Shown one piece after another: positions 3,557 to 55,854 of a stretch of DNA of 64,000 nt. The notes under the pieces are model-generated. The model was not told where the DNA came from, made no database searches, and saw nothing but the letters and a program-made list of their open reading frames with translations. The stretch lies in NCBI RefSeq assembly GCF_002854065.1, contig NZ_CP024147.1, one strand, 5' to 3'. Made by a program: the position numbers and the translations under genes. Positions within the stretch are counted from its first letter, which is position 1. Every line of letters begins with the position of its first letter. The DNA comes from Escherichia coli. GTDB lineage: Bacteria > Pseudomonadota > Gammaproteobacteria > Enterobacterales > Enterobacteriaceae.

Positions 3557-4507
3557 ATGAACGAGTTAGACGGCATCAAACAGTTCACCACTGTCGTGGC
3601 AGACAGCGGCGATATTGAGTCCATTCGCCATTATCATCCTCAGGATGCCACCACCAATCCTTCGCTGTTGCTCAAGGCTGCCGGATTATCACAATATGAG
3701 CATTTAATAGACGATGCTATCGCCTGGGGTAAAAAAAATGGCAAGACCCAGGAACAACAGGTGGTCGCAGCGTGTGACAAACTGGCGGTCAATTTCGGTG
3801 CTGAAATCCTCAAAATCGTACCCGGTCGCGTGTCAACAGAAGTTGATGCACGCCTCTCTTTTGATAAAGAAAAGAGTATTGAGAAGGCGCGCCATCTGGT
3901 GGACTTGTATCAGCAACAAGGCGTTGAGAAATCACGCATTCTGATCAAGCTGGCTTCGACCTGGGAAGGAATTCGCGCGGCAGAAGAGTTGGAAAAAGAA
4001 GGTATTAACTGCAACCTGACGCTGCTGTTTTCTTTTGCACAGGCCCGGGCCTGTGCGGAAGCAGGCGTTTTTCTGATTTCGCCGTTTGTCGGGCGTATTT
4101 ATGACTGGTATCAGGCACGCAAGCCGATGGACCCGTATGTGGTGGAAGAAGATCCAGGCGTTAAATCGGTGCGCAATATCTACGACTACTATAAGCAACA
4201 CCACTATGAAACCATTGTGATGGGCGCGAGCTTCCGTCGCACCGAACAAATCCTCGCCTTAACCGGCTGCGATCGACTAACTATCGCACCGAATTTGCTG
4301 AAGGAGCTGCAGGAAAAAGTTTCGCCAGTGGTACGTAAATTAATCCCACCTTCTCAGACGTTCCCACGCCCAGCTCCCATGAGCGAAGCGGAGTTCCGTT
4401 GGGAGCACAATCAGGATGCGATGGCGGTAGAAAAACTGTCTGAAGGCATTCGTCTGTTCGCCGTTGATCAACGCAAACTGGAAGATCTTCTTGCCGCCAA
4501 ACTATAA
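3557..4507 (+). CDS. talA: Transaldolase A
   Basis: 316-aa [26 protein letters not shown]...; transaldolase family; followed by tktB as in K-12. Confidence 0.95.
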
Positions 4508-15599: not shown

Positions 15600-15610
15600 G
15601 CAATAAAAAA

Positions 15611-15637
15611 GGCGACATGCTAATGTGTCGCCTTTTT
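15611..15637 (+). terminator. Rho-independent terminator after acrD
   Basis: GC stem ggcgac...gtcgcc followed by ttttt immediately after acrD stop. Confidence 0.7.
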
Positions 15638-18715: not shown

Positions 18716-20731
18716 TCAGTGAAAAAATTGCCATTGCGTTATGCGATCGCGCAGACGCTCAGTGCGAACATCATTAAGTGCGAACAGCGCCTGCGCGGCC
18801 TCTTCCCGCTGACGGACCAGTAACATCTTGCGGCCTGAAAGTTTAAGTGTGGTACATAACTGCGCGTCGCTGACGTTTTTCTGTAAACGCCCACGCAGCG
18901 CCGGTAATGCCAGTTCACTGGTTTGTAGCAGACGCAATAAGCAACCTAACGATGTTAATAGCGGACGATGAGCGAAAGCAAAACCGGCCAGCTCAAGCCA
19001 GTCGTCGTCAGAAAGCACGATATCGTTTAGTGGATCAACAGGAAGCATTTCGCCATTCCACTGCGCGAGAGCTTGCGCATCGCGACGTAAACGGAAATGC
19101 TCACGTTCAGCCAGCTGTTTACCCGCATCACTCATCGGTAACAGCGCCATCGCCGTATAGCAACCGCTGCTGGCTTCACGATGATTACCCATTCGCACCA
19201 GCACAAAACCGCAGCGTTGCCAGAAACGCCATAACTCCCCGGTGTAACCAAAACTCACCGAAAGATAGTCGAGGCCAGGCCTATATTGCAAAGCGCTGGC
19301 AATGAGCTGTTGCCCAACGCCTTCGCGCTGACGCGCCGGATGAACTGCTATCCGGCTGACCCGCCGTCCACGCAATGTCGCCGCCAGTGGATTGCTGCCG
19401 TGCGCCGCCAGCGACTGGGCCACCAGATTACCCCGCGGGCGACGAAAACCTGCCCATACCGCCTGACTGAGTTCTTGAGATAATCCACCCTCATCCACCA
19501 GCCACAGCGCTCCGGCAATCTCGTTTTCGCCAGCCGCCTGTAAAAAATGTTGCCCTGGTGCATCCATCATGCGGCGTAAATCCAGTGGCGAAGTCCGGTA
19601 GTGCGCACCAGACAATAACTGATAAACCTTTAACGGCGTTTCTGGCTCGATTCGCCATAACGTCTGTTCAAATGCGGAAATGACAATATTGCCTTGTGGT
19701 GTATGGGTGAAGTTTTCATCGTCAAAAACCAGTGCATTACTAACCATTTTTTCCAGCGGGCATCCCTGTGCCCAGCGGATCGGCTGTTGCAGTTCAAAAC
19801 GGTGTAAATGCGGAAAGCGAGCGCAAAATTTCAGCAAAAAACCACGTCCGGTGCCTTCGTAGCCCTGCACCGTAGTGGTTAACAACGTTCGAGGAAAACG
19901 CGATACCAGTTGATGCAACAACGGCGCAGGTATGGCTGCGGCTTCGTCGACCACCAGCCAGTCGGCTTGCTCATCGCTGGCTAACAAGGCATCCGGCGCA
20001 ATAAAGCGAAACTTCTCGCCCGCAAATTGTGCCAGTACATCCGTTGCCGCTTTTGCGGGCGCAGTGACAATCGCACTACCCGCAATACGAGAAATGAGTT
20101 GCCCTGCCAGCGCCGATTTACCGCGCCCACGCGCAGCAGTTACCGCTGCCACGCCCGACGGCATGGTCAGTAGCTGCTGTAAGATTTGCTGTTGTTCTGG
20201 TTGTGGTGCGCCGGTCGCGGGGTGCCAGTCAGTACGGGGAGTAAAATGCGCCAACGAGAACGGCTGGTTTTGCCGCCAGAGGATAGCGTCGTTATCCGCC
20301 GTAAGTACGCGTTTGAAATGCTGGACAAAATGCGGCGTCGCAATAGGGTCAGGGCAATCACTCCAGCGCAGCGAGTCGGCATCAGGTTGGTTTTCCCACT
20401 CTTCCCATACAGGGAGTAACAAAACCAGCCAGCTTCCCGCTTTCAACGTTCCGCTAAGTGCGGCAAAGGCAGCGGCATCAAAGCCGTGGCGGGCGTCGAA
20501 TACCGCATGCCGGAACTCGCGCCCAAGTAAAGTTTGTAGTGCCGAGGGAGAACAGTGGTTTTCAGCATCTGGCTGCGGCGAAATCCACAGCCAGTCGCCA
20601 GGTAAGGCATCACGTAACTTAAGCGCATGATCAAAACACCAACCCTCTTCCCCGCTCAACACCAGCAAGCGGCGGATCCCTTCACGTTTCATTTGCGCTG
20701 TTAATGTGTGAAGCGCAGTCAGTTCAGCCAT
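18716..20731 (-). CDS. tmcA: tRNA(Met) cytidine acetyltransferase TmcA
   Basis: 671-aa ORF MAELTALHTLTAQMKREGIRRLLVLSGE...; helicase-like ATPase (ARGRGKSA) plus GNAT domain. Confidence 0.92.
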   Translation of the reverse strand: MAELTALHTLTAQMKREGIRRLLVLSGEEGWCFDHALKLRDALPGDWLWISPQPDAENHCSPSALQTLLGREFRHAVFDARHGFDAAAFAALSGTLKAGSWLVLLLPVWEEWENQPDADSLRWSDCPDPIATPHFVQHFKRVLTADNDAILWRQNQPFSLAHFTPRTDWHPATGAPQPEQQQILQQLLTMPSGVAAVTAARGRGKSALAGQLISRIAGSAIVTAPAKAATDVLAQFAGEKFRFIAPDALLASDEQADWLVVDEAAAIPAPLLHQLVSRFPRTLLTTTVQGYEGTGRGFLLKFCARFPHLHRFELQQPIRWAQGCPLEKMVSNALVFDDENFTHTPQGNIVISAFEQTLWRIEPETPLKVYQLLSGAHYRTSPLDLRRMMDAPGQHFLQAAGENEIAGALWLVDEGGLSQELSQAVWAGFRRPRGNLVAQSLAAHGSNPLAATLRGRRVSRIAVHPARQREGVGQQLIASALQYRPGLDYLSVSFGYTGELWRFWQRCGFVLVRMGNHREASSGCYTAMALLPMSDAGKQLAEREHFRLRRDAQALAQWNGEMLPVDPLNDIVLSDDDWLELAGFAFAHRPLLTSLGCLLRLLQTSELALPALRGRLQKNVSDAQLCTTLKLSGRKMLLVRQREEAAQALFALNDVRTERLRDRITQWQFFH

Positions 20732-20745
20732 CCCTGCCCCGGAAG

Positions 20746-21609
20746 TTAAATGCTTTTACCAAAAGTATTGCATTGTGCCGGATCGCCGCTGTCGAAACCA
20801 CGTTTAAACCAGCTGTAGCGTTGCTGAGAAGTGCCATGAGTGAAACTGTCTGGTACTACTCGCCCCTGACTTTGCTGTTGTAAACGGTCATCGCCGATGG
20901 CCTGCGCCGCGTTCAGCGCCTCTTCCAGATCGCCGGTTTCCAGAACGCCTTGCTGCTGCATACTATGCCCCCAGACACCGGCAAAACAGTCGGCCTGGAG
21001 TTCCATACGCACAGATAAGCGGTTCACTTCCGCCTGCGTCGCGTTTTGTTGCAGTTGACGAACTTTCGGCTCGATGCCTAACAGTTTCTGCACATGATGA
21101 CCGACTTCATGGGCGATAACGTACCCCTGGGCAAAATCGCCATCCGCGCCAAGTTTGTCTTTCATGTCATCATAGAAGGAGAGATCGATATAAACCGTGC
21201 CATCCGCCGGGCAATAGAACGGCCCCATTATGGACTGGCCCGCCCCGCATCCGGTACGCGTCATTCCACGGTACATGACCAGCTTCGGTTGCTGATAGGT
21301 CTTACCCATCTTCTCGAACTGTTGTCCCCAGGTGTCTTCCGTGGTTGCCAGAATCACCGAGGTGAATTTTGCGGCTTCGTCTTCATTTGGGCTAATTGAC
21401 CGCGTTGATTGCAGTTGAGAAACCGGCTGCCCGGTCATCAACCCGGTTAAATCAACGCCATAGTAGCCTGCAACCAGCACGACTATCAGTAAAATCAGCC
21501 CGCCTTTACCGCTCGGCAGACGGAAACCGGGACCGCCCATTGACGGACCGCCGGAGCTATTGCGCCTGTCTTCAACATTGTCACTTTCACGTCGCCCTTG
21601 CCAACGCAT
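20746..21609 (-). CDS. ypfJ: Putative membrane-anchored zinc metallopeptidase YpfJ
   Basis: 287-aa ORF; HExxH motif ([10 protein letters not shown]); N-terminal transmembrane segment. Confidence 0.88.
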
Positions 21610-21776
21610 AGATACCTCAACAATATATTCATTATAGAAATGATCGTAGGTGGTTCAGAGGAAGATTACCACAGGAAAACGGGATGAAATGGCGGAGGAA
21701 TGAGCGTTCAATGCACATCTTACGAGAATGGTTGTCTTGCCGTGCTAGCAGCACGGCAAGATGATGAACAGAAAAA

Positions 21777-22490
21777 TCAGTCCAGCTGTACACCCAGGCG
21801 GCGGGCGACGGCTTCATAGGCCTCGATCAGGCCACCGAGGCTCTGGCGGAAACGGTCTTTGTCCATTTTCTCCAGCGTTTCTTTGTCCCACAGGCGGCTA
21901 CCGTCCGGGGAGAACTCATCACCCAGTACCACTTCGCCTTTGTACAGACCAAATTCCAGCTTGAAGTCGACCAGAATCAGACCAGCATCATCGAACAGTT
22001 TTTTCAGCACGTCGTTCGCTTTGTAGGTCAGCTCTTTCATACGCGCCAGGTTCTCTTTGCTCACCCAGCCAAAGGTTTCGCAGTAAGATTCGTTGACCAT
22101 CGGATCGTGCATGGCGTCGTTTTTCAGGAACAGATCGAACAGCGGCGGGTTCAGCTCAATACCTTCTTCGATTCCAAGACGTTTCACCAGAGAGCCCGCA
22201 GCACGGTTACGCACGACACACTCAACCGGTACCATATCCAGCTTTTTCACCAGACATTCGGTATCAGAGAGCAGACGCTCCATTTGAGTCGGGATACCCG
22301 CTTCAGCCAGTTTGCTCATAATGAAGTAGTTGAACTTGTTGTTCACCATACCTTTGCGATCAAACTGCTCAATGCGCGCGCCATCCCCTGCTGACGTATC
22401 ATTGCGGAATTCGAGCACCAACAGGTCCGGGTTTTCCGTGCTGTATACGGTTTTCGCTTTACCACGATACAACTCAGCTTGCTTTTGCAT
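21777..22490 (-). CDS. purC: SAICAR synthetase
   Basis: Start set at [24 protein letters not shown] (237 aa). Confidence 0.95.
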
Positions 22491-22542
22491 CTTTATCACT
22501 CCTGGGTGTGAATTAACGTTTTAAAATCTTTTGCTGTCTGGT

Positions 22543-22596
<54 letters not shown>

Positions 22597-22643
22597 CAAA
22601 CAAATTTCGTGCGAATTACCGCTAAAATCGCGTTTTCCTGCCG

Positions 22644-22659
22644 ACGCACACGTTTGCGT
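22644..22659. promoter_or_regulatory. PurR-box-like palindrome upstream of purC
   Basis: acgcacacgtttgcgt, one mismatch from a perfect 16-bp pur-box-type palindrome; about 155 bp upstream of purC start. Confidence 0.45.
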
Positions 22660-22702
22660 ATCATATCAGAAAAAAGGGCCGGATGATTCCAGCCCTGTAT
22701 TT

Positions 22703-23737
22703 TTACTTGCTAAACGCAGCCTGGAAGACAGCTACCAGCGCGTCGTTCTGACTCTGAGTCAGAGTATGACCTTTCGGATCGATGAACTGTAGGCTGCTGC
22801 GGTTATCTAAATCACCAACCTGCAGTTTATAGTCACCGGATGCCAGGCCTGGATCGCTCGCGCCCAGTTCCTGCCAGTCGCTGTCAGACAGCGGCTTATA
22901 AGTTACGGCCATGTTGCCCTGCGAACGGGTGCTGTCGGTCACTTTCATGCCCACTTTTTCCAGCGCCGCTGGCAGACGTTGCCAAACCACATTGAACGGC
23001 CCGCGTACGACCAGCATTGGTAAACCGGTGTCATCAGCTGCACTTTGTACGTCCATAGTGGTGGAGGCACGATTTTGCGCAGCGTTCGCGGCGTCAGTGG
23101 CAGATTTATCCAGACCAGCGGAAATAACGTTCATCATCTCCGTGTTGTAACGCTGCATGGAAGCCGCGTCTGCAACCGGTTTGCCCGCCTGTTCCAGGTT
23201 CAGCAGTTTAACCGTAACCGCCTGCTGATAACCCTGCGGCTTAACAGAGATTTGATAACGACCACGATACTGCTCGTCTTCGTCCAGACGGTTCCATTGT
23301 ACCCAATCGGTGGTCAGTGTCTGACCAGCATCATCACGTTGGGTAATGGTGTAGTTTTTCGCCTGCAGCACGCTAACCACCTGCGGCCACAGAGTATTGC
23401 CACGACCATTTTCCACCAGCAATGAAGCGGTATCGCCCGTGAACTGGGTACGCGCGCCAGAAACCAGTGCCAGCGGCTGGGCTGGTGGACGAATGTCCAG
23501 CGCCTTACCGACAGCACCACTACCGTTGGTCACCGGGATTGCATAATCACCGGAGGTCACCGGCAAAATCATTCCAGCCGGGGCATGAAGCTCCGCAAGC
23601 GGTGCCGCTTCCAGGTAGGCTTCATCACCACTGACCTGACGCTTATAGCGTGAGTCAGAACTACAGGCAGCGAGTAATAAAACAAGCGAAACACCCGCAA
23701 CCTTTGCCAGGCGCGACTTTTGAACAGAGTAAGCCAT
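22703..23737 (-). CDS. bamC: Outer membrane protein assembly lipoprotein BamC (NlpB)
   Basis: Start set at [27 protein letters not shown] (lipobox LAAC), 344 aa. Confidence 0.93.
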
Positions 23738-46036: not shown

Positions 46037-46052
46037 CTCGCAAACGTTTGCT
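46037..46052. promoter_or_regulatory. PurR operator (pur box) of purMN
   Basis: tcgcaaacgtttgctt, close match to the pur-box palindrome ACGCAAACGTTTGCGT; 65-80 bp upstream of purM start. Confidence 0.7.
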
Positions 46053-46098
46053 TTCCCTGTTAGAATTGCGCCGAATTTTATTTTTCTACCGCAAGTAA

Positions 46099-51580: not shown

Positions 51581-51609
51581 TGCGGGCCGACGAGAAATGT
51601 CGGCCCGCA
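51581..51609. terminator. Bidirectional hairpin terminator between convergent ppx and yfgF
   Basis: tgcgggccgac-gagaaat-gtcggcccgca, 11-bp perfect stem. Confidence 0.75.
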
Positions 51610-55822: not shown

Positions 55823-55854
55823 AAAAAACCCTCTGTAGTAACAGAGGGTTTTGT
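55823..55854. terminator. Bidirectional terminator between convergent yfgI and guaA
   Basis: aaaaaccctctg-tagtaa-cagagggtttt hairpin flanked by A and T runs. Confidence 0.8.

Follow-up and report, generated by a model that had tools for sequence, protein, structure and literature searches.

A stem-loop without a U-tract very probably sets the 3' end of purC mRNA in Escherichia coli

At an intrinsic terminator the U-tract is where the RNA is released, 7-9 nt past the stem, and release driven by the hairpin requires a U-rich hybrid. Transcripts ended by Rho may also carry a terminal stem-loop, the classic case reportedly being trp t/t', studied by Mott, Galloway and Platt in 1985. For Rho-dependent transcripts as a class, ends have been described at a stable stem-loop with few uridines, no upstream A-tract and more C than G downstream; the transcripts are trimmed back to the stem-loop by PNPase and RNase II, and possible mixed or transitional cases were mentioned (Dar & Sorek 2018, PMC6061677). 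The hairpin behind purC that is described here is an ordinary member of this known class of hairpins, which have no U-run and stand at the ends of transcripts probably terminated by Rho. It has in common with the class a GC-rich stem-loop directly upstream of a precise steady-state 3' end, and an end with neither a U-rich tail nor an upstream A-tract and with C in excess of G downstream; the difference is that at purC we infer both the Rho dependence and the exonuclease trimming.

Two other kinds of element invite comparison. A canonical terminator, such as that of bamC (22675-22696), likewise has a GC-rich hairpin of similar length and energy just past a stop codon, and the hairpins of purC orthologues in Cedecea, Erwinia, Providencia and others bear U-tracts. 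The purC hairpin of E. coli differs from such terminators in that it has no U-tract, that the 3' end lies 2 nt instead of 5-9 nt from the stem and that about 22% of purC transcripts run into the next gene. Like the REP/BIME elements that stabilise mRNAs, it is a palindrome outside the coding sequence, in a 3' UTR, where it could block exonucleases, but it is single-copy in every genome and has neither the REP consensus nor an Rfam match.

Over the region tested, the window, i.e. the whole 64,000-nt stretch of E. coli DNA that was analysed, matched strain 100416 at 100% identity and O157:H7 strains at 99.7%. Around the hairpin the genes, dapA, bamC, purC, ypfJ (start at 21609) and tmcA, are all encoded by the minus strand, and the features of the region are collected in Table 1. 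PurR-like boxes were found at only two places in the 64-kb window, 22644-22659 and 46038-46053 (TCGCAAACGTTTGCTT); when projected onto K-12 coordinates the second site is presumably near purMN. The purC transcription start site used for Table 1 is K-12 position 2597781 (Yan 2018, PMC6131387).

Table 1. Coordinates of features in and around the purC-ypfJ spacer of the window.
Feature	Position	Strand	Description
purC CDS (SAICAR synthetase)	21777..22490	minus	ORF; annotated in RefSeq on E. coli sequence that is identical to it or nearly so; K-12 CDS 714 bp
purC 3' UTR stem-loop	21735..21761	minus	12-bp perfect stem UCUUGCCGUGCU / AGCACGGCAAGA, 3-nt loop GCU
Projected purC mRNA 3' end	21733	minus	transfer of K-12 2596861, 2 nt 3' of stem base
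38-nt allele-specific segment	21731..21768	minus	TTCATCAT + hairpin + CAAC; swapped for about 790 nt
Relic of ancestral enterobacterial purC hairpin	21691..21725	minus	loop, 3' arm and tail kept; 5' arm lost
C-rich, G-poor stretch	21631..21708	minus	26 C and 8 G in 78 nt; candidate rut region just past hairpin
Conserved block upstream of ypfJ	21627..21678	minus	TTTCCTGTGGTAATC-N-AACCACCTACGATC, then TATAAT
PurR box ACGCAAACGTGTGCGT	22644..22659	minus	overlaps projected purC transcription start 22653

The original prediction had placed an 11-bp stem, cttgccgtgct-agc-agcacggcaag at 21736-21760, 16 nt beyond the purC stop codon and had noted that no T run follows it. The letters were confirmed exactly, the distance was borne out (TGA at 21779-21777 on the minus strand) and the minus-strand hairpin is indeed followed by ACAACCATTCTCG. 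The perfect stem is, however, 12 bp long rather than 11 bp, with arms at 21735-21746 and 21750-21761; the stem-loop starts 15-16 nt 3' of the purC stop and 8 of its pairs are G-C. In RNA folding of 46 nt the hairpin had a free energy of -20.6 kcal/mol (z = -5.6), and none of 200 shuffled sequences was as stable. Perfect stems of at least 11 bp with loops of 3-8 nt occurred at five sites in the 64-kb window, compared to a mean of 0.05 in 40 dinucleotide shuffles of the window, which indicated that the purC hairpin is not due to chance. The stem-loop is real and stable. Besides this one, the window has four perfect inverted repeats with 11 bp or more, at 944-971, 15607-15636, 51581-51609 and 55825-55852, and that at 944-971 is a palindrome of 14+14 bp without a spacer.

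With its GC-rich stem-loop soon after the gene, purC has one element of a canonical intrinsic terminator, but another, a U-tract of about 7-8 nt directly 3' of the stem, is missing from the tail CAACCAUU. On the minus strand UUUUUCUGUUCAUCAU precedes the stem and CAACCAUUCUCG comes after it (CAACCGCUCUCG is the K-12 counterpart of this tail), and the number of uridines in the 8 nt 3' of the stem is 1-3. Such a shortage of uridine 3' of the stem, with no A-tract on its 5' side, is as described for the ends of Rho-dependent transcripts. A scan for the terminator pattern (hairpin plus T-run) gave no match at the purC hairpin and found the bamC terminator at 22696-22675. No U-run was present on either strand beside the purC hairpin. 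On the plus strand an A-rich stretch comes after the hairpin; a plus-strand terminator was ruled out, since a T-run is missing there as well and the neighbouring genes are all encoded by the minus strand. An Rfam search of 20500-23000 with a permissive E-value gave no match at the hairpin. In the purC 5' UTR of about 150 nt there is a sub-threshold match (22543-22587, minus strand; 30.9 bits against a gathering threshold of 59.5) to the Rfam family naRNA4, which we take to be a REP-derived RNA, and this match points to a REP-like element in the stretch from the purC start site to the coding sequence. The bamC terminator is itself of the canonical intrinsic type (22675-22696, minus strand; AGGGCTGG-AATC-ATCCGGCCCT followed by TTTTTT), with 3' ends at 2597797 (Yan 2018, PMC6131387) and, in Adams 2021, at 2597798/9, and it shows condition-dependent read-through towards purC.

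A high-confidence transcript end at the base of the hairpin is recorded in K-12. In the SMRT-Cappable-seq data of Yan 2018 (PMC6131387, Supplementary Data 1, M9_TTS), obtained from full-length primary transcripts of E. coli K-12 in M9 medium, purC (b2476) has a "novel TTS" at 2596861 of NC_000913.3 (row 'NC_000913.3 2596861 2597781 reverse 88 58 19 8 1077 novelTTS NA NA b2476'), a position that is not among the known termination sites compared in that study. Among 88 reads from the purC promoter (start 2597781), 58 stop at 2596861, 8 end at most 50 bp downstream of it and 19 (about 22%) read through, with a median of 1077 nt, an extension that is long enough to span ypfJ (Yan 2018, PMC6131387). 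The K-12 stem occupies 2596863-2596889 and the 3' end is therefore 2 nt beyond the stem base (...GGCAAGA-CA). There were no indels over the hairpin stretch between K-12 and the window, and as a check on the transfer of coordinates the reported purC start site fell within the purC PurR box in both. The 3' capture of the method is indirect, ends lying no more than 5 bp apart are reported as one and terminal A residues are blurred by poly(A) tailing (PMC6131387), so the projected position 21733 is good to about +/-2 nt. The original prediction was to fail if no transcript 3' ends mapped near 21730-21740, and the K-12 end projects into this interval.

A precise 3' end directly downstream of a stable stem-loop is a feature of the class of Dar & Sorek; at a canonical terminator the end would lie inside a U-tract about 7-9 nt after the stem, and the distance found was 2 nt. 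The hairpin very probably defines the 3' end of the purC mRNA, and with it the purC transcription unit gains a defined 3' boundary, at 21733 in the window and about 2596861 in K-12. The read-through indicates that ypfJ receives roughly one fifth of the transcription from the purC promoter. This 3' end is already in a high-throughput table, and there is no individual study of the hairpin; a literature search on purC and ypfJ 3' ends found nothing relevant. In two passages of the Term-seq lists of Adams 2021, apparently from the lists of different conditions, no purC 3' end is given and the entries go from acrD or ypfG to the bamC terminator, which may reflect stringent thresholds or repression of purC in rich medium. 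Nor was purC among the entries of the TERMITe supplement.

Given the missing U-tract and an end only 2 nt from the stem, the mapped 3' end should be a trimmed end. It is possible, though unlikely in our judgement, that the hairpin acts as a weak non-canonical intrinsic terminator, perhaps aided by NusA or NusG, with release a few nucleotides downstream without Rho and a tail that is nibbled to 2 nt. The purC stem is as stable as the stems of true terminators; two-thirds of the transcripts share a single end point and about 22% run on past it, a pattern common at leaky terminators; the orthologous hairpin carries a U-tract and looks canonical in several related genera; and mixed or transitional cases may exist (Dar & Sorek 2018, PMC6061677). 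Against this stands the tail, which is nearly free of U (CAACCAUUCUCG; CAACCGCUCUCG in K-12) when textbook release needs a U-rich hybrid, and the letters just 3' of the stem vary freely within E. coli. In addition, the rule of the terminator scan does not apply to the site and the mapped end is 2 nt, not 7-9 nt, from the stem. The missing U-tract, the negative scan and an end too near the stem also uphold the original statement that this is not a canonical intrinsic terminator.

Improbable, in our estimate, is a scheme without any dedicated termination, in which one transcript covers purC and ypfJ, an endonuclease cleaves it within the spacer and the hairpin only stops exonucleases, as a stability or processing element within an operon. 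An end 2 nt from the stem is what trimming would leave in that case too. By textbook standards RNase III needs a stem longer than these 12 bp, which speaks against such processing, and an RNase III site was ruled out on the same grounds. Moreover, ypfJ has its own strongly conserved upstream block and a TATAAT, which suggests separate transcription. Read-through transcripts spanning ypfJ do exist and a "dapA-ypfJ operon" is named in Yan 2018 (PMC6131387), wording that agrees with leakage across the hairpin site; however, SMRT-Cappable-seq selects 5'-triphosphate primary transcripts, which were argued to be RNase E-resistant, and few of its sites coincide with RNase III sites (Yan 2018, PMC6131387).

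The lack of a U-tract, the end 2 nt from the stem and the C-rich, G-poor spacer together favour termination by Rho downstream of the hairpin, after which the tail is trimmed as far as the hairpin, which protects the purC mRNA at its 3' end, and we hold this to be the probable account, with some reserve. The C/G ratio of the spacer, 3.25, ranks among the highest 0.06% when every 78-nt window of the minus strand is counted (sliding C/G ratio), compared to 0.5-0.8 in the flanking coding sequence, and such an enrichment of C over G downstream of the stem-loop is again as described for the Rho-dependent class. The strong skew is specific to Escherichia among the species compared. The composition of the spacer may have other reasons than selection for a rut site, since it overlaps the block conserved upstream of ypfJ, in which CCTACGATC is invariant in an alignment of 24 sequences from about 12 genera; this block is probably the promoter or regulatory region of ypfJ, set apart from purC by the hairpin.

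According to the proposed mechanism, the ribosome would leave at the purC stop and the untranslated C-rich, G-poor spacer would most likely load Rho. Release of RNA polymerase would probably not be caused by the hairpin itself; termination by Rho would be diffuse and farther on, around the start of ypfJ, and PNPase and RNase II would then degrade the tail as far as the stem base. The hairpin would in this way be the 3'-terminal stem-loop of the purC mRNA, setting its steady-state 3' end, and most likely shields the message from 3'-to-5' exonucleases, while about one fifth of the transcripts get past the site and run on through ypfJ. From the likeness to the class of Dar & Sorek we infer Rho as the releasing factor, the exonucleolytic trimming and the stabilisation of the purC mRNA. 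The original suggestion that the element may be a Rho-dependent or RNase-protective stem-loop gains support from this likeness, its Rho part being arrived at by the same comparison.

The end of purC was also compared among other species. A stable hairpin was found within about 100 nt of the purC stop in almost all of about 80 species, a few of the hairpins being weak (e.g. L049 at -4.4 kcal/mol), and the sequences are unrelated although the position is the same. By a crude count, U-tracts follow the purC hairpin in Cedecea, Pluralibacter, Providencia, Photorhabdus, Rheinheimera and others, whereas few uridines follow it in Escherichia, Citrobacter, Pseudocitrobacter, Leclercia and Kluyvera, and the pyrimidine-rich tails of Enterobacter are borderline; among the species compared the lowest count was that of Escherichia. 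In a set of 12 homologous hairpins of the Enterobacter type, pre-selected for folding and in that respect biased towards structure, 6/11 pairs showed double changes and 88.6% of cells were paired, compared to 40-50% with the partners slid, and 0/500 shuffles reached the score.

A stretch between the Escherichia hairpin and ypfJ is homologous to the loop, 3' arm and tail of the Leclercia hairpin (23/28 nt identical; 0/2000 shuffles scored as high). The stretch is unstructured (-3.7 kcal/mol, z = 0.2), and among the pairwise comparisons only that with Leclercia was significant, whereas those with six hairpins of Enterobacter, Pseudocitrobacter or Citrobacter type were not. The ancestral hairpin is intact and covarying in Enterobacter, Leclercia and Pseudocitrobacter, with U-tracts in Pluralibacter and relatives, and in the alignment the Escherichia hairpin lies within about 45 extra nt that are absent from other genera. 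Taken with the comparisons among species, the relic, the extra nucleotides and the skew specific to Escherichia suggest hairpin turnover, possibly with a shift from intrinsic termination to Rho. Tentatively, a replacement of about 70 nt in Escherichia could have broken the 5' arm of the ancestral hairpin and introduced a hairpin of unrelated sequence that lacks a U-tract, along with a C-rich spacer of greater length, so that an end of intrinsic type became one made by Rho plus a protective hairpin; we give this switch a rather low probability.

Within Escherichia the stem is invariant and changes occur only at the loop-closing positions, save for a single C-to-U in E. albertii that preserves a G.U pair. 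The loop-closing positions are A..G in K-12, where the hairpin has an 11-bp stem and a 5-nt loop, U..G in O157:H7 and S88, and U-A in the window; this loop-closing T-A pair is specific to the lineage of the window strain. At most 81 of 5426 genomes are 2 or 3 changes away from the K-12 38-mer, the class to which the window belongs. The most polymorphic part of the spacer in Escherichia is the 15-20 nt just after the stem, which argues against a sequence requirement there.

In E. coli the purC-ypfJ spacer exists as two mutually exclusive alleles, the 38-bp hairpin segment and a vapBC toxin-antitoxin cassette of about 790 bp. Among 5426 complete E. coli genomes the hairpin allele was found in 3805-3806 and the cassette between purC and ypfJ in 1620-1622 (about 30%), these being the only two classes; a third allele without any hairpin was not found in the 5426 genomes. 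Both alleles have TGATTTTTCTG on the purC side, and on the ypfJ side homology returns around CATTC...GTAA. The cassette of about 790 nt consists of a different hairpin, vapB and vapC, and its own hairpin adjoins the purC stop (UUUAGCCGGAG-GGUA-CUCCGGCUAAA, -19.3 kcal/mol). The exchange of a 38-bp module for a cassette equipped with another hairpin hints that any sequence arriving behind purC may have to provide a 3' stem-loop. A literature search for vapBC and purC found no paper linking vapBC to the purC-ypfJ site.

This exchange also bears on whether the palindrome might act as DNA, e.g. as a protein operator, a cruciform or a recombination scar or target of vapBC, the RNA hairpin being incidental. 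The palindrome is near-perfect over 27 bp, and the 38-bp segment that contains it is the exact piece swapped for the vapBC cassette in 30% of the genomes. A function in DNA is nevertheless highly improbable: the transcript end maps to the base of the palindrome, the hairpins at the same place in other genera are unrelated in sequence and have compensatory changes, which fits an RNA structure, the palindrome is single-copy with no PurR box and no Rfam or REP match, and by eye the junction alignment showed no obvious target-site duplication flanking the vapBC cassette.

Several readings of the palindrome were rejected. A PurR operator was ruled out because the 16-bp PurR box ACGCAAACGTTTGCGT was not matched at the hairpin, and another operator because other genera have unrelated sequences in this place. 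A dispersed repeat, REP or MITE, was ruled out by the hairpin being single-copy: with up to 3 mismatches no further copies were found in the window, and in 3805 genomes the hairpin occupies one locus per genome, where REP/BIME elements are multi-copy. Genomes with the K-12 loop gave a second matching place, which is most likely due to this palindrome being matched on the other strand too.

The purC hairpin is a clean, checkable case of the rule by which mRNAs of E. coli have a protective stem-loop at their 3' end even when there is no intrinsic terminator. Its practical value is small and it opens no new question; the hairpin allele, the vapBC allele and the orthologues with U-tracts form a natural comparison for what the end of a gene needs.

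As a minor observation, E. coli purC is itself repressed by PurR and has no PurR-box-like 16-mer past its stop, whereas many Enterobacterales outside Escherichia, Citrobacter and Enterobacter have such a 16-mer (ACGCAAtCGtTTaCGT) 0-30 nt past the purC stop, upstream of the terminator hairpin. It was located in L022 (3220-3233), L024, L039, L040, L045-L047, L049, L060, L062 and L063, and by eye in L020, L030, L034, L038, L042, L052 and L072.
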